A stretch of DNA of 64,000 nucleotides from Candidatus Bathyarchaeota archaeon (GTDB lineage: Archaea > Thermoproteota > Bathyarchaeia > 40CM-2-53-6). A model generated the notes under the pieces. It was given only the letters and a program-made list of their open reading frames with translations. It was not told the origin of the DNA and ran no database searches. The translations under genes and the position numbers were made by a program. Numbering within the stretch: the stretch's first letter is position 1; each line of letters opens with the position of its first letter. Positions 38,237 through 50,620 of this stretch are shown one piece after another. Where the stretch lies: assembly GCA_005888745.1 (NCBI GenBank), contig VBBS01000027.1:55045-119044 (forward strand), written 5' to 3'.

Positions 38237-38503
38237 CTACCACATAGATCGCCTGGGAGATTCACTTCCGTGCTTCCGGTACGAGTCAAGCATCGCCCTA
38301 AGTGTTCCTGCCTTGCCAACATCACTGAATCCGATCCTATCACAGAATCGGAGCAAGTTGTCCCTGCCAAGGATGGCTAACTTCCAACTTGTAATCGTGC
38401 TCCTTCGAACGCCAGCCTTGGTGTCCAAGTACAACTTGGAGTCGATGCCCATTTCGGTGAGCATCCCGCCGATGTTTTCTAGGAGCATACTATTTGTGTC
38501 CAT
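38237..38503 (-). CDS. small ORF resembling the C-terminal half of a LAGLIDADG homing endonuclease (possible remnant)
   Basis: L..MGIDSKLY......R.STITSWKLAILGRDNLLRFCDRIGF...K resembles the second-half scaffold of these enzymes. No intact LAGLIDADG motif is present. Confidence 0.25.
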   Translation of the reverse strand: MDTNSMLLENIGGMLTEMGIDSKLYLDTKAGVRRSTITSWKLAILGRDNLLRFCDRIGFSDVGKAGTLRAMLDSYRKHGSESPRRSMW

Positions 38504-41002: not shown

Positions 41003-41263
41003 GCCAGAACTATCCCGAGTATTTCGACTAGGCTCTATACCAAGAATTTCCGACACCCGCATCTCAGTGGGGCACTCAACTCTCCGTCGGATTAGGAGAG
41101 ATTGTGCCACTGTTCCGGAAGGATTCTTAGCTTCGGCACCTTTCTCTCTGTCTTTTGACTGGAAACGCGCTCACTTGCCAGGGGTCTGGCCAGTGAAAAC
41201 GGTCAATAGGAAAATTCGCCCCCTAAGCGACCTTCTAAGCCCGTAGCCCTAGGATGTTACGAA

Positions 41264-41956
41264 TTGCTCACCGAGTCGCAGTCAGAGATGCTTGGGATAC
41301 TGTTCGGAGATGGGTCGATGTCTGAGAATCACAACTCCGTTCAGATCGTCATAACCGGTCACAAATTCGATGACGTAGAGTACCTAATTGGCCGCGTAGG
41401 TCCGATGTTCGCGGAACTCTTTGAAATGCCCCTCAAGGTACATCTAGTGAAAGATGAAAATACGATGATCCTCTACGCTTACTCCAAACGAATTGCCCTG
41501 ACCCTTCACGAATGGGGAATGCCTTTTGGCCGAAAAAAACTGGCCTGGCTCACACCGCACGTCGCATTGGATGAAGTATCTTTCGTCAGAGGCTTATTCG
41601 ACACAGATGGCTGTGTCTATCGCAAGTATGGCCCTTATTTGCAAATCCAGTTTAAGTTCGCTTCCCTTTCGCTCCTTGAGTACGCGAGGGAGTGTCTGGT
41701 AAGACTCGGCCTGAATCCCACATCGATCAGGTGCGACGATACGAAGTTCAGGTTCTATCTCAGCAGACAAGCCGAGGTAGACCATTTCTTTAGGGTCGTA
41801 GAACCCAAGAACCCAAAGCATCTTAATCGTTTCCAAAATGCTTCTCGGAATCGGTCCTACCGCCCATACACACATCGTCCTGAAGCACTCAGAAGAATTG
41901 GAAACCAACCAAGCCTTATAGGACCAATTCTGTGGAAAACACACTCGGTGGGGTAA
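41264..41956 (+). CDS. free-standing LAGLIDADG homing endonuclease (double-motif)
   Basis: Two motifs: MLGILFGDGS and VRGLFDTDGC. It ends 27 nt upstream of the tRNA-Trp gene. Confidence 0.8.
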   Translation: MLTESQSEMLGILFGDGSMSENHNSVQIVITGHKFDDVEYLIGRVGPMFAELFEMPLKVHLVKDENTMILYAYSKRIALTLHEWGMPFGRKKLAWLTPHVALDEVSFVRGLFDTDGCVYRKYGPYLQIQFKFASLSLLEYARECLVRLGLNPTSIRCDDTKFRFYLSRQAEVDHFFRVVEPKNPKHLNRFQNASRNRSYRPYTHRPEALRRIGNQPSLIGPILWKTHSVG

Positions 41957-41983
41957 CTAAGGAAACCTTTCGACATAGGGCTT

Positions 41984-42164
41984 GGGGCCGTAGTCTAGCC
42001 AGACCCACTCCGGGTCCTAGTAAGGGACGACGACGGGCTCCAGAATCTATGAAACATGCACACCGACCAATATCGAGGGATGAGGAAATTCGGGAGCGCG
42101 TGAAGATACCCGTAGACGAGGGACTCGGCGGATGTCGTGGGTTCAAATCCCACCGGCCCCACCA
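41984..42164 (+). tRNA. tRNA-Trp (anticodon CCA) interrupted by three putative introns; CCA end encoded
   Basis: Acceptor GGGGCCG (41984-90) pairs with CGGCCCC (42154-60). The T arm is GTGGG-TTCAAAT-CCCAC. The anticodon arm is ACGGG (42033-37), loop CTCCAGA, and CCCGT (42109-13). A cloverleaf results only if about 22 nt (D-loop, ~42001-42022), 64 nt (37/38, 42044-42107) and 18 nt (45/46, 42116-42133) are removed. Confidence 0.75.
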
Positions 42165-43677: not shown

Positions 43678-44562
43678 ACGAAAGTCGCAATTGTAGGGTT
43701 CGGCATGATGGGCCGGCAGATAGCCCAAGTATTCGCCCAAAATGGCCACGAGGTCGAGGCCACGGATGAGGATCAGCAAGCACTGAAGGCGGGGCTCAAC
43801 GAAATAGCAGACGGGCCCTACGGATTGCACGCGGCTGTTTCAAAAGGAAAACTGGCTGCAGAGCAAGCTCACAGGACTCTAGCAGCCATCAAGACAAGAC
43901 CCGAGCTAGCGGATGTTTGCAAGAACTCGACTCTTGTGATCGAGGCAGCCTTCGAGGAGCTGCAACTCAAACAGAATCTGTTTCACAGAATTGAATCTGC
44001 TGCGCCACCAACTGCGATCATAGCATCAAACACTTCAACCTTGAGCCTGGACAAGATCACCCAAAGAATCTCAAGGAAGGACAGAACGATTGGAATGCAC
44101 TTCTTTAATCCAGCCCAGCTCACAAAACTCGTCGAGATCGTCCGAGGAACGTCGACATCACCTGAAACACTAGAGAAAGCGTCCCAAATCGTCCGGGAGA
44201 TCGGTAAGACCCCTATCCTCGCCCAAGATGAGCCTGGTTTCATCGCCAACCGTCTCGGACTCACCCTCTACATGGAGGCTTCAAGACTGCTAGAGGATCG
44301 TGTCGCAAGTCTCTCTGACATCGACACGTGCATGAGACTCGGATACAACCATCCAATGGGACCCTTCGAACTAGCCGACTTCGTCGGACTTGACACCAGA
44401 CTTCGGAATCTAGAATCACTCTACAAGTCAACGAATGAAAGTAAATGGATACCACCTCAGATTCTAAGAGAGATGGTCCAACAAGGATACCTCGGCGACC
44501 CTGCTAGAAAGAAGACGAGCAAGGGCGGATACTACGAGTATCTCCGGATAAAGCGAGGATAA
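43678..44562 (+). CDS. 3-hydroxyacyl-CoA (3-hydroxybutyryl-CoA) dehydrogenase
   Basis: The HADH family core is present (NTSTLSL, HFFNPA). The Rossmann beta1-GxGxxG element KVAIVGFGMMG starts upstream of the first ATG (43705). ACG 43678 directly precedes KVAIVG. Confidence 0.85.
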   Translation, partial: TKVAIVGFGMMGRQIAQVFAQNGHEVEATDEDQQALKAGLNEIADGPYGLHAAVSKGKLAAEQAHRTLAAIKTRPELADVCKNSTLVIEAAFEELQLKQNLFHRIESAAPPTAIIASNTSTLSLDKITQRISRKDRTIGMHFFNPAQLTKLVEIVRGTSTSPETLEKASQIVREIGKTPILAQDEPGFIANRLGLTLYMEASRLLEDRVASLSDIDTCMRLGYNHPMGPFELADFVGLDTRLRNLESLYKSTNESKWIPPQILREMVQQGYLGDPARKKTSKGGYYEYLRIKRG

Positions 44563-44611
44563 GAAAATCCCAACCCTTTATACAGAACATAAGCCGTGTC
44601 AACTCCACTGG

Positions 44612-45016
44612 TTGTTATTTGGTGTGTTAACTTCGTTCGTCTCCAGCCGTTACCTTCGAAGTATGACTCTTCACATGTTAGGCGGTCGTCGCATGAACCT
44701 GTCACGTTGGGATGAGGGGGATGACTCCGATCAGGTGACGGGTCAGAAATGGGATAGCCGGTTGGCTGGCCACCGTAAAATCCTTGCTTGGCAATCGGCC
44801 AAGTTACCACGCTATGGGCGTGAGGGGGCGGTTGAGGTTCGACCGTTCCCTGCCAAAAAGAGACTACATGTCTCTGAGGCGCAAGGGCTCGCAGGTGAAG
44901 CAGTGAAGAGGAACCCGCCGACGACGGTAATCCTCCGAGCAGATGAGAGCAAGTCTAGTCCCCCAGCAACGGAAGACTCGACAGAACCCAGAACACAACC
45001 CACAAACCATCGATGA
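44612..45016 (+). other. unassigned segment: either a 134-codon ORF of no recognisable family or a structured RNA
   Basis: The ORF is open across the whole HADH-ECH gap and stops 3 nt before the ECH start. The same segment has complementary GT-rich 5' (44610-28) and AC-rich 3' (44992-45008) ends plus several local hairpins. Confidence 0.25.
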
Positions 45017-45019
45017 TGA

Positions 45020-45793
45020 TTGCTGTACACACACATTCTAGTTGAGACTGAGCCGCCTATCGGAATCATCCGACTGAACCGTCCGAAAGCTCTCAACGCC
45101 CTCAACTTCGAACTTATCCAAGAAACAGTGGAGGCACTCGAAGGCTTCGACAAAGACGACAGGATCAAAGCGACGATCTTGACAGGGGGAGACGACGCCT
45201 TCTCTGCTGGAGCAGACATCAAGGAACTAGCGGAAGCGACTCCTGTCACCTTGATCGAGGAGAACAAGTTCGCCCTCTGGGATCGCTTGAAGAAGATCGC
45301 AAAGCCGATCATAGGAGCGGTCAGCGGCTACATCTACGGAGGAGGATGCGAACTGGCAATGAATTGCGATATCATCATTGCATCCGAGACCGCACGATTC
45401 GCACAGCCTGAAATCAACATCGGAATAATGCCCGGAGCTGGCGGGACACAGCGTCTCACAAGAACCATCGGAAAGTATAGGACAATGGAGATGGTTCTAA
45501 CCGGACAACCCATGACCGCGCGAGAGATGGAGAAACACGGTCTCGTCAACAGAATCGTCCCCGTCGAGGCCTACTTCGATGAGGCACGCAAACTCGCCAT
45601 GCAAATCGCCCAGAAAGCCCCCATAGCCACACGGCTAGCGAAAGAGGCGGTGCTGAAAGCTCTCGACACACCGCTCGAGGAAGGGCTACAATTCGAGAGG
45701 AAGAATTTCTACCTCCTCTTCTCAACAGAGGACATGAAAGAGGGAATGAAAGCCTTCACGGAAAAACGGCCCCCCAGATTCAAAGGACGATAG
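45020..45793 (+). CDS. enoyl-CoA hydratase (crotonase family)
   Basis: ITLNRP-type start (IIRLNRPKALNAL), FSAGADI, GGGCELAM and the active-site Glu regions. Confidence 0.85.
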   Translation: MLYTHILVETEPPIGIIRLNRPKALNALNFELIQETVEALEGFDKDDRIKATILTGGDDAFSAGADIKELAEATPVTLIEENKFALWDRLKKIAKPIIGAVSGYIYGGGCELAMNCDIIIASETARFAQPEINIGIMPGAGGTQRLTRTIGKYRTMEMVLTGQPMTAREMEKHGLVNRIVPVEAYFDEARKLAMQIAQKAPIATRLAKEAVLKALDTPLEEGLQFERKNFYLLFSTEDMKEGMKAFTEKRPPRFKGR

Positions 45794-45796
45794 TTC

Positions 45797-46591
45797 TTGG
45801 CACCTGAAACACTCATCGTCGAAGAACACGACCACATCACAAAGATCACACTGAACAGGCCGAGCGCCCTAAATGCGATAAACGACAAGATGGGCGAAGA
45901 ACTACTCGCGACTCTCAAAGAGACAGAGAAGAGCGACACTACCAGATGTCTTGTCATAACAGGGGCAGGAAGAGCTTTCTCAGCAGGAGAAGACATATCA
46001 GCTCTGAAAGACCGCTCTGGGACAGGAGACCATCCCTCACTCGGGGATCATCTCCGGAAGAAGTATCATCCAATCATAACCCGGATCCGAAACATCGAGA
46101 AACCAGTAATCGCCCGTCTGAACGGCATAGCAGCCGGAAGCGGGGCAAGCTTGGCCCTCGCCTGCGACATCCGAGTAGCCTCAGAGGAGGCGGGCCTCAA
46201 ACAGGCCTTCATCGGGGTAGGCTTGATACCGGATTCTGGAAGCAGCTACTTCCTAACACGAATGATCGGTCCCGGAAGGGCCCTCGAACTCATCATGACA
46301 GGAAAAACAATACCAGCGAAAGAAGCTGAACAACTTGGCCTCATCAACAAAGTCGTCCCCGCCGCCGAGCTTGACAAGCATACAGACGAGCTTGCCCATC
46401 AGCTCGCAACCGGCCCGACCAAAGCACTAGGACTCTCCAAGCGAATCGTGAACAAAGTCATAAGCCTCGAACTTCCAGAAGCCCTGGAGTATGAAGCCTA
46501 CAACCAGGACATCGCTGGACGAACCAGCGACCATCTAGAAGCCGTCAAAGCCTTTCTAGAAAAACGACAGCCGAAGTTCTTAGGGAAATGA
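45797..46591 (+). CDS. enoyl-CoA hydratase/isomerase family protein (second paralogue)
   Basis: ITLNRPSALNA, FSAGEDI, AAGSGASLALACD. Confidence 0.8.
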   Translation: MAPETLIVEEHDHITKITLNRPSALNAINDKMGEELLATLKETEKSDTTRCLVITGAGRAFSAGEDISALKDRSGTGDHPSLGDHLRKKYHPIITRIRNIEKPVIARLNGIAAGSGASLALACDIRVASEEAGLKQAFIGVGLIPDSGSSYFLTRMIGPGRALELIMTGKTIPAKEAEQLGLINKVVPAAELDKHTDELAHQLATGPTKALGLSKRIVNKVISLELPEALEYEAYNQDIAGRTSDHLEAVKAFLEKRQPKFLGK

Positions 46592-48077: not shown

Positions 48078-49235
48078 GTCTTAGGCCGCATCGGAATCGT
48101 TGGAGTTGGACATTCAAAGTTCGGAAAAAGGAGCGACGCCTCCCTCCGAGAGCTAGCATTCGAAGCGTACAGTTCCGCCCTAGATGACGCCGACATCGAC
48201 TCTTCAAAAATAGACGGTTCAATAGTTTGCTCCGCCACTCACTACGACAAGCAACGATCGCCTGCAGGTGTTGTTGCGGAATATCTCGGACTCAATCCCC
48301 AACCAACATTCAACGTTGAGGCAGCCTGCGCCTCCAGCGCTGTTGGCCTTCGGACCGCGTGGGCGCTTGTCTCATCAAAACTTCATGATGTGGTGGCCGT
48401 TGTGGGGGTGCAGAAGATGACCGAACTCTCCTCGGAGGAGATCCAGGAGCTCATGGGCAGAGCAGGGGACGTCATGTGGGAGTCTCCCTTCGGAACAACA
48501 ATGCCCGCATACTACGCCTCCTATGCTAACGCCCACATGGCCAAGTACGGAACTACAGAGGAACAAATGGCGCTCGTGTCGGTGAAGAACCGAAAATACG
48601 GATCCAAGAATCCTAACGCCATGTTTCAAAAACCCATCCAATTGGAAGAGGTCCTAAAATCGCGAATGGTATCTTATCCTCTAAAACTATACGATTGCTG
48701 CGCCAATGCTGACGGGGCGGCATGTCTGCTCATTACTAGTGCCGAAAAAGCAAAGAAAATTTCTGATAGACCCGTATGGATCTCCGGGCTTGGCCTGGCT
48801 TCGAGTCCCATGTCGCTTGCTGGAAGAAAAGGTCCATTGACGAGTTTCGATGCCACAAGAAATGCGGCGAGAACGGCATACGAAATGGCCAATATCAAAC
48901 CACACGACGTACATGTGGCGGAGGTTCATGACTCTTTCTCGGTAACAGAAATCATCAATTATGAAGACCTCGGATTCGCACGACCTGGAAGGGGTGCTAA
49001 GCTTCTGGAAAACCAAGGCACGGAGCTCGGCGGGAGAATCCCCGTCAACATCGACGGAGGCTTGATTTCCAAAGGCCATCCAGTCGGAGCCACAGGCGCG
49101 TCCCAGATCTTCGCATTGGTCAAACAACTACGGGGGGAAGCGGGTAGCGTTCAGGTCGACGGCGCTAAGATTGGTCTCGCACAGAACATAGGGGGAATAG
49201 GAATGTACTGCTCCGTTACGATCTTGCGCTCATGA
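48078..49235 (+). CDS. thiolase (SCP-x / archaeal acetyl-CoA C-acetyltransferase type); start codon unresolved
   Basis: The frame is open from 48063. The N-terminus RIGIVGVGHSKFGKR and the catalytic-Cys region NVEAACASS lie upstream of the first canonical start (GTG 48390). The C-terminal GHPVGATGA is also present. The start given is approximate (GTC 48078, TTA 48081 or ATC 48090). Confidence 0.85.
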   Translation, partial: VLGRIGIVGVGHSKFGKRSDASLRELAFEAYSSALDDADIDSSKIDGSIVCSATHYDKQRSPAGVVAEYLGLNPQPTFNVEAACASSAVGLRTAWALVSSKLHDVVAVVGVQKMTELSSEEIQELMGRAGDVMWESPFGTTMPAYYASYANAHMAKYGTTEEQMALVSVKNRKYGSKNPNAMFQKPIQLEEVLKSRMVSYPLKLYDCCANADGAACLLITSAEKAKKISDRPVWISGLGLASSPMSLAGRKGPLTSFDATRNAARTAYEMANIKPHDVHVAEVHDSFSVTEIINYEDLGFARPGRGAKLLENQGTELGGRIPVNIDGGLISKGHPVGATGASQIFALVKQLRGEAGSVQVDGAKIGLAQNIGGIGMYCSVTILRS

Positions 49236-49281
49236 GTACATTCTCCAAGCTCTATGACGAAAAGCGAGGGCGAATCTAGGA

Positions 49282-50208
49282 TTGCAGGTGGACATTCAAG
49301 AGTTGACCCCCATTCAAAGCTTCGGCAGAAGAATTCGAGCCTATGATAAAGCCACACGCCTCGCAAAGGAAGGTCGCCCTGTCACTGAAATCTCGAAAGA
49401 GACGGGAACGCCTGACGCTACCATCAGGGGATGGCTCGTAAACGGTCGAAAACCTTGGACCCGCTGCGAACTCTTCAAACCAACGTACTCTGATCAATTA
49501 ACATATGTTATCGGTGTTTACATGGGAGACGGCTCGATTTCCCGATGGAGAAATCGTTTTTTACTGCGATTAGATGTCAAAGACAAAGAATTCGCCGATA
49601 AGTTTTCTTCAACATGCGCACATGTTCTGGGTAGGAAACCATATTCTGTGAGGCATGTCAGGGATAGGGACACATACGAGACTATCATTTCAAACGCGTC
49701 TTTCTGCAAGTTCCTCAACCGAGGCCTCACCCACCTGGATCGGTATGTACGGGAGCATCCCTCTGGCTTTGTTAGAGGTTTAGCTGATAGCGATGAGTGC
49801 CCCACTGTGACAACAACAAAAAAGCGGGGCAAACCCTGGTTCTTCGTCCAAGTTGTAGTAGCAACATCCAAGAGCATACGCTTACTGAGCTATACTCGGA
49901 CGATCCTGAGGGAATGCCTCGGACTCAAAGCGACGCTAGTGTACAAAGGCAAGCCAAGACCCAGTGTGTTCAAGAACAAGTTGCTCCGTTCAAGAAAGAG
50001 GGTCTTTGACCTTAGGATATCGCGCTTTGGTGACGTGAAACGATTCTCCCGGGTTGTTGGTTTCGAATTGGCTCGGAAACAAGAGAAGCTTGCCGCTGCT
50101 ATCTTCGTCCGTGAAGGATTTGGTTCTGGTCAGGATGCGGTGAAAGAGTGGACCCGTCGCTGGGAGCATGGCACCACTGAGTGGATTCTCAAGAAAGGAG
50201 TGGACTAG
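49282..50208 (+). CDS. LAGLIDADG homing-endonuclease-like protein with N-terminal HTH
   Basis: Motifs YVIGVYMGDGS and FVRGLADSDEC. The N-terminal EGRPVTEISKETGTPDATIRGWL is HTH-like. It sits between the thiolase and DUF35 genes. Confidence 0.7.
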   Translation: MQVDIQELTPIQSFGRRIRAYDKATRLAKEGRPVTEISKETGTPDATIRGWLVNGRKPWTRCELFKPTYSDQLTYVIGVYMGDGSISRWRNRFLLRLDVKDKEFADKFSSTCAHVLGRKPYSVRHVRDRDTYETIISNASFCKFLNRGLTHLDRYVREHPSGFVRGLADSDECPTVTTTKKRGKPWFFVQVVVATSKSIRLLSYTRTILRECLGLKATLVYKGKPRPSVFKNKLLRSRKRVFDLRISRFGDVKRFSRVVGFELARKQEKLAAAIFVREGFGSGQDAVKEWTRRWEHGTTEWILKKGVD

Positions 50209-50212
50209 GCAA

Positions 50213-50620
50213 TTGGGTTTTGAAAAGTTCGGGAGATTTGGTTATGTCTCCCAGACCAAGATCAACCCCTTGTTATCCTATCTGGAAAAGGGGCAGATTG
50301 CCGCGACCAAGTGCAAGAAGTGCGGGAGAACGTACTTTCCACCAAGAGCCGAGTGCCTGGACTGCCGCCACAGTACGATAGAATGGGTTGTAGTGGACGG
50401 GAGGAGCAAACTGATCACATTCACCCAGGTTTTCTTCGCACCACCCGCCTTTCAGCACGAAACCCCGTACATGCTAGGACTTGCGGAACTCACGAATGGG
50501 CTTCGCGTATTCGCGCCTGTCAGTCCTGCAGTGGAAAAGGAGCAACTCAAACCGGGCGTCGAGCTGACCTTGAAGGTTGCAAAAGGCTCACGTGACAACT
50601 TGTACTACTGGCTCGAATGA
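50213..50620 (+). CDS. DUF35 OB-fold/zinc-ribbon protein (thiolase partner)
   Basis: CKKCGRTYFPPRAECLDC zinc ribbon followed by an OB fold. TTG 50213 lies 5 nt after the endonuclease stop. The track ATG 50168 would overlap that gene. Confidence 0.8.
   Translation: MGFEKFGRFGYVSQTKINPLLSYLEKGQIAATKCKKCGRTYFPPRAECLDCRHSTIEWVVVDGRSKLITFTQVFFAPPAFQHETPYMLGLAELTNGLRVFAPVSPAVEKEQLKPGVELTLKVAKGSRDNLYYWLE

Follow-up and report, generated by a model that had tools for sequence, protein, structure and literature searches.

A tRNA-Trp(CCA) gene split by three bulge-helix-bulge introns in a soil Bathyarchaeia archaeon, with relatives carrying up to five

We identified a split transfer RNA (tRNA) gene for tryptophan, tRNA-Trp(CCA), in a 64-kilobase (kb) stretch of contig VBBS01000027.1 of a Candidatus Bathyarchaeota archaeon (assembly GCA_005888745.1). 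This whole stretch of 64,000 nucleotides (nt) is referred to below as the window, and coordinates are window positions. The gene consists of four exons separated by three introns, at tRNA positions 17/17a, 37/38 and 45/46, and is organized as follows:

41984..42164, plus strand: tRNA-Trp(CCA) gene, 181 nt including the 3' CCA at 42162-42164; mature RNA of 77 nt
41984..42000, plus strand: exon 1, with the 5' strand of the acceptor stem, U8 and A9, the 5' strand of the D stem and D-loop bases A14-C17
42001..42022, plus strand: intron 1, 22 nt, in the D loop at 17/17a
42023..42043, plus strand: exon 2, with the remaining D loop, the 3' strand of the D stem, G26, the 5' strand of the anticodon stem and C32-G37; anticodon CCA at 42040-42042
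42044..42107, plus strand: intron 2, 64 nt, at the canonical site 37/38; found by ARAGORN -i and present in all 90 orthologues
42108..42115, plus strand: exon 3, with A38, the 3' strand of the anticodon stem, A44 and G45
42116..42133, plus strand: intron 3, 18 nt, in the variable loop at 45/46
42134..42161, plus strand: exon 4, with G46-C48, the T arm, the 3' strand of the acceptor stem and the discriminator A73

In-silico removal of 42001-42022, 42044-42107 and 42116-42133 gives a 74-nt string followed by CCA, which ARAGORN recognizes as a tRNA-Trp(cca) of 77 nt. The original prediction, made from the letters of the DNA, had proposed that a tRNA-Trp(CCA) at this place needs exactly these three excisions (D loop, 37/38 and 45/46), and the ARAGORN call on the spliced product agrees with it. 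The predicted sequence of 41984-42164 and the predicted 74-nt cloverleaf string plus CCA were reproduced letter for letter, and the perfect acceptor stem of 7 base pairs (bp), the T arm and the anticodon arm that had been seen spread over 181 nt all reappear in the ARAGORN fold of the product. That fold further comprises 5 bp each in the anticodon stem and the T stem, and three D-stem pairs with a U13.C22 mismatch. The minimum free energy (MFE) structure of the mature 77-mer is the cloverleaf as well. A G1-C72 pair and a discriminator A73 are the identity elements of the archaeal/eukaryotic type of tryptophanyl-tRNA synthetase, and the product carries this set, with G41984 (G1) paired to C42160 (C72) and A42161 as discriminator (A73). 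The 5' 19-mer of the gene occurs once in the window, against 0.01 expected occurrences.

Default ARAGORN and Rfam at the gathering threshold report no RNA gene anywhere in the 64-kb window, a null result that is uninformative for split genes, and the unspliced locus has no tRNA match in Rfam in a permissive search either. In this permissive search, run on 2.2 kb, the transfer-messenger RNA (tmRNA) model, which belongs to the tRNA clan, spans exactly 41984-42164 (36.8 bits against a threshold of 47, E=1.3e-12), as it might if the locus encoded a tmRNA-like or other tRNA-like structured RNA. The alignment, however, uses the acceptor, T-arm and CCA columns only and skips 260 model positions, the locus contains a complete CCA anticodon arm, a normal tRNA results from splicing, and the host belongs to the archaea. 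tmRNA is bacterial. The probability of a tmRNA-like RNA is therefore close to nil, and the match was set aside as an artefact of end similarity: it arises because tRNA-like ends stand 181 nt apart, and as such it marks both ends of the gene independently. A scan of the window for hidden tRNAs (a T arm with a 7-bp acceptor partner within 600 nt) found a CCA and discriminator at the tRNA-Trp locus only; the three other matches were chance-like.

The introns were examined for the bulge-helix-bulge (BHB) structure. In the geometry used, a 4-bp helix H lies between two 3-nt bulges that are each cut after the second bulge base; h' denotes the inner and h the outer helix. The three motifs are given below, a slash within a bulge marking the cut:

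Intron 1 BHB: H 41995-41998:42017-42020 (CTAG:CTAG); bulges 41999-42001 (CC/A) and 42021-42023 (TA/A); h' 42002-42006:42012-42016 (GACCC:GGGTC)
Intron 2 BHB: h is the anticodon stem, 42033-42037:42109-42113 (5 bp); H 42038-42041:42102-42105; bulges 42042-42044 (AG/A) and 42106-42108 (AT/A)
Intron 3 BHB: H 42110-42113:42128-42131 (CCGU:GCGG, one U.G pair); bulges 42114-42116 (AG/A) and 42132-42134 (AU/G); h' 42117-42120:42124-42127 (CGAG:CUCG)

At the cuts dictated by the cloverleaf, introns 1 and 3 both have two 3-nt bulges and an H of 4 bp, with h' of 5 and 4 bp, respectively. The boundaries had been predicted with an ambiguity of 1-2 nt; the coordinates stand, the BHB geometry picks exactly those, and the ambiguity is thereby resolved. 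It had also been stated that clean motifs could not be drawn by eye for all three introns. Motifs do exist at all three: introns 1 and 3 have a full H, and in intron 2 H (CUCC:GAAG) has 3 of 4 pairs with a C34.A mismatch. The motif of intron 2 is hBH-like, and its H also has three pairs in 86 of the 90 orthologues described below. When the segments were shuffled with the sites kept fixed (cloverleaf cuts +/-1 nt), a BHB as good as the observed one was obtained in 10 of 20000 shuffles for intron 1 (p≈5e-4), in 15 of 20000 for intron 3 (7.5e-4) and in 0 of 20000 for both. Locally, the MFE structure of the 31-nt segment around intron 1 is the BHB itself (-10.0 kcal/mol), as is that of the 27-nt segment around intron 3 (-7.5 kcal/mol), and the intron-3 BHB joins the global MFE structure after removal of intron 1.

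Orthologues were collected by a metagenome scan with the 5' 19-mer and a scan of species-representative genomes with the 23-mer of the tRNA 3' end, resulting in 90 distinct complete tRNA-Trp(CCA) genes (fetched loci carry labels of the form L148). The genes were parsed by spliced alignment to the mature sequence, and boundaries were refined by BHB score among the shifts that preserve the product. Strand H_B of intron 1 and everything else between the query and the parsing constraints was free to vary. The intron layouts found were:

17/17a + 37/38 + 45/46 (the layout of the window): 39 genes
25/26 + 37/38 + 45/46: 25 genes
37/38 only: 7 genes
17/17a + 28/29 + 37/38 + 45/46 + 59/60 (five introns): 6 genes
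37/38 + 45/46: 5 genes
28/29 + 37/38: 3 genes
28/29 + 37/38 + 45/46 + 59/60 (four introns): 2 genes
other: 3 genes

Alleles that lack intron 1 or intron 3 have exactly the predicted exon junctions. In the five genes with introns at 37/38 and 45/46 only, the D loop AGCCAGGGA is contiguous with the junction AGCC/AGGGA, and in the seven genes with the 37/38 intron only, the variable loop AGGTC is contiguous with the junction AG/GTC. L148 and L137 differ by the exact presence or absence of the 22-nt intron 1 in genes that are otherwise almost identical.

Within the alignment of the 39 genes with the layout of the window, 2 of 21 columns are variable in exon 2, 0 of 8 in exon 3 and 1 of 28 in exon 4; the corresponding numbers are 21 of 30 for intron 1 and 13 of 26 for intron 3. 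The helix CTAG:CTAG and both bulges are kept in all 45 distinct genes with a 17/17a intron, and the intron-1 hairpins vary wholesale and always pair (GACCC with GGGTC, GGAGGACT with AGTCCTCC, GAACGACGAGA with TCTCGTCGTTC, GATCCATT with GATGGATC). Likewise, CCGT:GCGG is kept in 77 of 77 genes with a 45/46 intron, combined with hairpins such as CGAG with CTCG, CAC with GTG, CTT with AAG and CGAA with TTCG. Covariation was counted on intron cores registered on their anchors. All cells of the intron-1 core are paired (100%, compared to 18-57% in slid controls), double changes occur in four of the five h' pairs, and the covariation score was reached by 0 of 500 shuffles. The intron-3 core has 95.7% of its cells paired and double changes in two of its three h' pairs. 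RNAalifold, applied to the 39-gene alignment without structure input, returned the acceptor stem, the T stem, the complete BHB of intron 1, H of the intron-3 BHB and a guide duplex involving intron 2 that is described below. The BHB helices are thus kept by compensatory substitutions, which indicates selection on splicing.

The same comparison bears on two simpler models of the gene. If only the 37/38 intron were removed, the mature RNA would retain the 22-nt insertion as an enlarged D loop and the 18-nt insertion as an additional variable arm. Each of them folds into a small hairpin, ARAGORN can accept the 18-nt segment as a variable region, and it chose the true 5' end in 13 of the 39 unspliced orthologues with the same layout. 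A structural expansion would, however, have no reason to keep the exact BHB geometry found in every one of the 45 and 77 genes, in close relatives one of the two insertions is missing, with ends exactly at the BHB cut sites, and a D loop of 31 nt would displace the contact of G18G19 with the T loop. Retention of the two insertions is therefore highly improbable. The second model was reported by ARAGORN -i on the raw DNA of the window and places a tRNA-Trp at 42011-42164 with one 64-nt intron in the anticodon loop and a long variable region; 13 of the 39 same-layout orthologues give it too. The original prediction had named a different and simpler predictor model as an outcome that would speak against it, and formally this is such a model, which the comparison of orthologues exposed as an artefact. 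In its fold, the acceptor stem contains two C.C mismatches, the D stem has 3 bp and closes a 4-nt loop without G18G19, and 18 nt are left unpaired in the variable region of what would be a class I tRNA; the perfect 7-bp acceptor partner at 41984-41990 is ignored. The model is not reproduced in 26 of the 39 orthologues that share the layout, nor in any other layout, for which ARAGORN begins the gene at GGGGCCG, and what it takes for the 5' acceptor strand is the 3' arm of the intron-1 hairpin, which covaries. We consider the one-intron model extremely improbable and rejected it.

The host is a soil archaeon of the Bathyarchaeia, within the TACK lineage (Thaumarchaeota, Aigarchaeota, Crenarchaeota and Korarchaeota). 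The genome scan with the 3' 23-mer found the same tRNA-Trp in four metagenome-assembled genomes (MAGs), namely Candidatus Bathyarchaeota BA_7 (VBBB01), BA_2 (VBAW01) and BA_21 (VBBP01) and Crenarchaeota archaeon 13_1_40CM_3_52_17 (MNGN01), so the locus did serve as the taxonomic clue it had been taken for. An 87-kb ENA scaffold (CRIT18-1_SAMN08902853_METAG-scaffold_26) encodes a protein of the window and carries a tRNA-Trp gene and an adjoining open reading frame (ORF) of the LAGLIDADG family that are identical to those of the window. The identical or a nearly identical gene is also present in independent assemblies (L002, L003, L160, L244), with related contigs from other samples, and because of these independent assemblies the locus is not an assembly artefact.

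The locus could also be a decaying or silent tRNA-Trp pseudogene whose introns are mere insertions, with a working gene elsewhere. Rearranged or truncated copies do occur in related contigs (L133, L139, L142, L149, L153 and others, with deletions in L234 and L242 and a duplication in L154), and a mobile LAGLIDADG cassette, described below, sits in the leader of the gene. A pseudogene is not expected to have exons 2-4 that are near-invariant over 39 alleles with diverged introns, or BHB helices kept by compensatory changes; the cassette brings its own promoter block directly before the tRNA; and the 3'-half pattern matched one tRNA-Trp locus only in each of the named MAGs. Archaea usually have a single tRNA-Trp gene. 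A pseudogene is, on balance, very unlikely.

Several observations weigh against a functional gene with three BHB introns. The genome is known from the 87-kb scaffold only, so that a second, intron-less tRNA-Trp gene is possible. The strict form of the motif, hBHBh', has h and h' of at least two Watson-Crick pairs each (PMC7714728), and none of the three window introns has this form: introns 1 and 3 are of the relaxed HBh' type with outer helices h of only 1 and 0 pairs, and the window introns agree only with the relaxed motifs that (alpha-beta)2 or epsilon2 enzymes accept. The BHB of intron 2 is weak, with three of four pairs in H and an h' of only an A-U and a U.G pair, it is less stable than the unconstrained local fold by about 10 kcal/mol, and an H of at least three pairs arises by chance in 33% of fixed-site shuffles and is uninformative. 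In the global MFE structure of the 181-nt precursor, only the acceptor stem and the T stem remain, and BHB pair probabilities are at most 0.06. A blind BHB scan of the locus shows no enrichment over dinucleotide shuffles (7 observed, 8.0 expected), so that the BHB motif alone proves nothing and the weight rests on its position and on the comparative data. Within the comparative data, the 19-mer query forced exon 1, together with H_A and bulge 1 of intron 1, to be invariant, and the parsing pattern did so for the last 8 nt; neither counts as evidence. Lastly, we infer transcription, cleavage, ligation, the type of enzyme and any methylation-guide role. Taking both sides together, we estimate a probability of about 0.9 that 41984-42164 is a functional tRNA-Trp(CCA) gene of a soil Bathyarchaeia archaeon with three BHB introns.

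Upstream of the gene, the following features were identified:

41030..41076, plus strand: resident, displaced promoter block AGGCTCTATA ... CAGTGGGGCACT, which aligns with the promoter and leader of ORF-less loci and now lies upstream of the LAGLIDADG ORF
41077..41983, plus strand: cassette, a 907-nt insertion in the tRNA leader containing the LAGLIDADG ORF (41264-41956) and its own promoter block
41914..41922, plus strand: TATA-like box CCTTATAGG, about 65 nt upstream of the tRNA and inside the 3' end of the LAGLIDADG ORF
41945..41953, plus strand: leader or start-region motif TCGGTGGGG, about 31-38 nt upstream of the tRNA and present in nearly all tRNA-Trp loci

A box of the (A/C)CTTTATA type is found at the same distance upstream of nearly all orthologues, whether the LAGLIDADG gene is present or not, and the box at 41914-41922 is the probable promoter of the tRNA. 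Read as its reverse complement, the GGTGGGG(C) of the leader gives (G)CCCCACC, the 3' end of the tRNA. The GGTGGGG motif is absent upstream of tRNA-Pro genes that share the same 3' end, and complementarity between leader and 3' end was for that reason rejected as a general feature of tRNA precursors.

The gene would be transcribed from this TATA-type promoter into a precursor of about 210-220 nt. A tRNA-splicing endonuclease would then cut the 3-nt bulges of the three BHBs and, as the structures and their conservation suggest, release introns of 22, 64 and 18 nt, after which an RNA ligase would join the four exons into the 77-nt cloverleaf with its encoded CCA. The enzyme is expected to be of the broad-specificity (alpha-beta)2 type on account of the TACK lineage of the host: this endonuclease has a broad BHB spectrum and is found mainly in TACK, which includes Bathyarchaeota (PMC7714728). 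The H helices of introns 1 and 3 borrow D-stem bases C12 and U13 and anticodon-stem bases C40-U43, and the precursor must therefore refold locally for each cut. The folding energies suggest that introns 1 and 3 would be removed first.

Intron 2 differs from the two other introns in that it contains a segment that resembles a methylation guide. The features of this intron are:

42088..42097, plus strand: guide-like segment AUUCGGGAGC, which pairs with 42037-42046 (G31-G37 and the first three intron bases)
42077..42083, plus strand: C'-box-like GGGAUGA, assigned by eye
42063-42066, plus strand: D'-like CCGA, assigned by eye
42100-42103, plus strand: D-like GUGA, overlapping the h' and H strands of the BHB, assigned by eye

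The guide of about 10 nt is complementary to the region around C34; the duplex covers 10 positions with 9 pairs and a mismatch opposite A36. It is present in all 90 parsed genes and covaries at intron positions i2 and i3 (T:A in 71 genes, G:C in 9, A:T in 7). The 3' half of the intron (GGGAUGAgGAaAUUCnGGAGCGCGUGAaGAU) is conserved nearly at exon level in the 39-gene alignment, with 7 of 31 columns variable, compared to 35 of 41 in the 5' half. Intron 2 is homologous in kind to the archaeal tRNA-Trp guide intron, and its 3' half probably pairs with the anticodon loop, either in the precursor or once the intron is excised. The guide duplex and the intron-2 BHB are mutually exclusive because both use C32-C35. 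The same exclusion of guide pairing and intron BHB was reportedly described for Haloferax by Singh and coworkers in 2004.

Several results speak against a guide of the canonical type. Intron 2 has no match to Rfam C/D families at E<=10. The terminal boxes of the window are AUGAAAC and GUGA, and most close relatives lack the GA at the C position. With GUGA as box D, U33 is the partner of the fifth base upstream (A42095) and C34 that of the sixth, so that the spacing departs from the N+5 rule; four loci from other lineages (L088, L124, L156, L185) are in the N+5 register. For a second guide, directed by D' to position 39, the sequence preceding the D'-like box in the window (...CAUGCACA/CCGA) has no usable complementarity to A38-U43, and relatives of the L104 type keep ACGGGU. 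Archaeoglobi loci fetched for comparison have textbook boxes (GUGAUGA...CUGA...UGAUGA...CUGA). As both boxes and register fail, intron 2 was rejected as a canonical box C/D small RNA. By analogy with the box C/D guides for Cm34 in other archaeal tRNA-Trp introns, a methylation-guide function of intron 2 is conceivable at somewhat less than even odds.

Eight of the orthologues are split more heavily than the gene of the window. Five BHB-bounded introns, at 17/17a, 28/29, 37/38, 45/46 and 59/60, interrupt the tRNA-Trp genes of L144, L178, L186, L200, L220 and L228, and four interrupt those of L156 and L185. These eight genes are 190-232 nt long, and each splices in silico to a 74-nt product that ARAGORN recognizes as tRNA-Trp. 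The 59/60 intron is of the strict hBHBh' form. Heavy splitting also affects tRNA-Pro(GGG), which has four insertions in L024, L029, L036, L042, L048, L056, L063 and L068 and three in L011, L012, L052, L058, L059, L106, L116, L125 and L126. The insertions interrupt the anticodon stem, the variable loop and position 7/8 or the D loop, and all genes splice in silico to a tRNA-Pro recognized by ARAGORN. The tRNA-Pro loci come from MAGs that are mostly labelled Bathyarchaeota or Bathyarchaeia, with few other labels, and a few of the insertions have poor BHB scores at the automatic boundaries. In BA_2 and 13_1_40CM_3_52_17, a tRNA-Pro locus was found in addition to the tRNA-Trp locus among the matches to the 3' pattern. 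Heavy splitting of tRNAs seems to be general in Bathyarchaeia. In MAGs of other TACK archaea, among loci of Caldarchaeales and Nitrososphaerota (L013-L014, L018, L020, L064, L092, L093 and others), tRNAs with the same 3' half carry one or two short insertions at or near the anticodon loop and variable region. Archaeal tRNA genes have been stated to contain up to three introns (PMC8450103), a published maximum that these relatives exceed. A literature search of incomplete coverage returned no report of an archaeal tRNA with at least four introns and none of introns in tRNAs of Bathyarchaeota.

The LAGLIDADG ORF next to the gene belongs to an insertion. Syntenic loci without the ORF (L218, L183, L203) are 89-90% identical to the window up to 41076, which corresponds to 22-24 nt before their tRNA, and homology resumes at 41984; this alignment gap identifies 41077-41983 as an insertion in the leader. 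The protein contains a LAGLIDADG_3 domain (Pfam, E=6.2e-9, residues 105-157); two motifs were recognized by eye, LGILFGDGS close to the N terminus and GLFDTDGC in the second half. It has no match among PDB sequences at E<=0.01. The cassette lies directly upstream and on the same strand in 10 of 44 assessable loci of the window type, in 17 of 28 of the 25/26 type and in 0 of 21 with other layouts. Taken together, 27 of the 72 assessable loci that have a D-arm intron possess it, and this presence or absence at a fixed site is a signature of mobility. All 10 cassette-bearing loci of the window type carry the short, 22-nt form of intron 1. A search upstream of the LAGLIDADG ORF of the window for a remnant of a 5' tRNA-Trp part gave none at <=3 mismatches, only a gappy and unconvincing alignment.

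Free-standing LAGLIDADG genes occur several times in the same genome. Besides the ORF of the cassette, the window contains two LAGLIDADG_3 ORFs, at 38237-38503 (minus strand; an 88-amino-acid fragment) and at 49303-50208 (plus strand; 301 amino acids), the latter between the gene for a 272-amino-acid thiolase C-terminal-domain protein and a ChsH2-type zinc-ribbon/OB gene. The region 3' of the tRNA (43705-46591 and 48417-50620, plus strand) contains a gene cluster for fatty-acid or butyrate-type metabolism, with genes for a 3-hydroxyacyl-CoA dehydrogenase, two enoyl-CoA hydratases, a thiolase, a ChsH2-like protein and a 4HBT thioesterase, in an order that is kept in L001-L003.

The intron of the D arm is variable among the relatives: close relatives differ in whether it is located at 17/17a, at 25/26 or is absent, and 17/17a and 25/26 introns never occur together. 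In eight loci (L133, L139, L142, L149, L153, L190, L201, L233), a truncated 5' fragment of a tRNA-Trp gene lies about 830 nt upstream of a complete gene of the 25/26 type, with a LAGLIDADG ORF between the two. These fragments consist of exon 1, the 17/17a intron and the bases up to about position 21-25, and they look like scars of allele replacement; L133 has a second copy, truncated inside intron 2. L104 and L202 (17/17a) are 100% identical to L134 (25/26) from about tRNA position 61 to 800 nt downstream and 82-87% identical upstream, an identity switch that indicates a recombination breakpoint inside the gene, at the boundary of the D arm and the anticodon arm. This was the one independent case found in a systematic search for near-isogenic pairs with different layouts. 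In an identity profile aimed at a co-conversion tract, L160, which has the cassette, and L218, which has none, are less alike over roughly the first 100 nt of the tRNA than elsewhere, a segment that also includes fast-evolving intron parts. Aberrant tRNA-Trp copies were seen in L154, with an internal duplication from exon 3 to the T arm, and in L234 and L242, with deletions that remove the anticodon arm; they may be pseudogenes or assembly artefacts.

These sequence comparisons fit allele replacement by recombination, which is possibly driven by an endonuclease. The free-standing LAGLIDADG endonuclease might drive intron turnover itself, such that the cassette together with the adjacent 5' part of the tRNA and its D-arm BHB intron replaces resident alleles by break-induced recombination. 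The occurrence of the cassette only beside alleles with a D-arm intron, the D-arm introns that never co-occur, the 5' fragments, the L104/L134 pair and the short intron 1 of cassette-bearing loci fit this proposal and do not prove it, and we regard it as unlikely. If true, it would be an archaeal analogue of 'collaborative homing' and offer a mechanism for the spread of BHB introns, for swaps between 17/17a and 25/26 and for the build-up to five introns.

Free-standing homing endonuclease genes are known to occur beside their targets, and LAGLIDADG genes of the I-DmoI type are located inside BHB introns of archaeal rRNA genes. The cassette is similar to the former in that it is an insertion of the presence/absence kind with a two-motif LAGLIDADG ORF, of predicted activity, next to an intron-bearing RNA gene. 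It differs from the I-DmoI type, as the ORF is located in the leader, outside all three introns; stable ORF-containing introns of archaeal rRNA have been mentioned (PMC3326292).

Intron 2 belongs to a tRNA-Trp intron class that in archaea has a median length of 65 nt and in Haloferax contains a nested box C/D guide for C34 and U39 (PMC4090602); the guide in the intron of Haloferax volcanii tRNA-Trp(CCA) is attributed there to Clouet d'Orval 2001 and Singh 2004. The 65-nt tRNA-Trp intron of Sulfolobus solfataricus lacks the consensus boxes and has kept the complementarity to positions 34 and 39 (PMC3326292). Intron 2 shares with the Haloferax and Sulfolobus introns the tRNA, the 37/38 site, the approximate length, a 3' part complementary to the region around C34 and a pairing that is exclusive with the BHB, and, as in Sulfolobus, consensus C/D boxes are not evident and the complementarity is kept. 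In contrast to the Haloferax guide, most of the clade lacks a terminal C box, GUGA is one base off the N+5 position, and the position-39 guide is degenerate. The conserved guide-like half gives a handle on whether the methylation-guide role of the tRNA-Trp intron persists beyond Euryarchaeota when canonical C/D boxes are lacking.

Non-canonical tRNA introns of Thaumarchaeota/Nitrososphaerota have a separate BHB covariance model in tRNAscan-SE 2.0 (PMC8450103). These archaea, likened here by description, also belong to TACK, live in habitats of moderate temperature and have many non-canonical BHB introns that are hard to detect; they form a different class. In the red alga Cyanidioschyzon merolae, a eukaryote, nuclear tRNAs have up to three BHB-type introns (D-loop, 37/38 and T-loop), and the outer introns leave before the one at 37/38 (PMC3728597). 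This order matches the one suggested by the folding energies of the window gene, a likeness that is mechanistic only.

The gene is invisible to default finders, and genomes of an abundant soil lineage consequently look as if they lacked tRNA-Trp, and probably other tRNAs too, which distorts estimates of their completeness. The relatives provide a natural allele series, with a D-arm intron that is absent or located at 17/17a or 25/26, with or without the 45/46 intron and with up to five introns in total, in which gain, loss and movement of tRNA introns can be observed at single-nucleotide precision. The closest known counterparts are the multi-intron tRNA genes of Thermoproteales such as Pyrobaculum calidifontis and Thermofilum pendens (Sugahara et al. 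2008, as cited in PMC8450103 and PMC4090602). Like the gene of the window, these have several short introns at canonical and non-canonical sites, each with a BHB that is often relaxed, and are missed by standard finders; their introns are removed by the tRNA-splicing endonuclease. The host of the window gene, by contrast, is a mesophilic soil archaeon and not a hyperthermophile, its relatives have four to five introns, and the position of the D-arm intron is variable. Heavily split tRNAs thereby extend from hyperthermophilic Thermoproteales to mesophilic soil Bathyarchaeia: the multi-intron archaeal tRNA is a known kind of gene, newly seen in Bathyarchaeia, and the gene described here is an ordinary representative of its own lineage.

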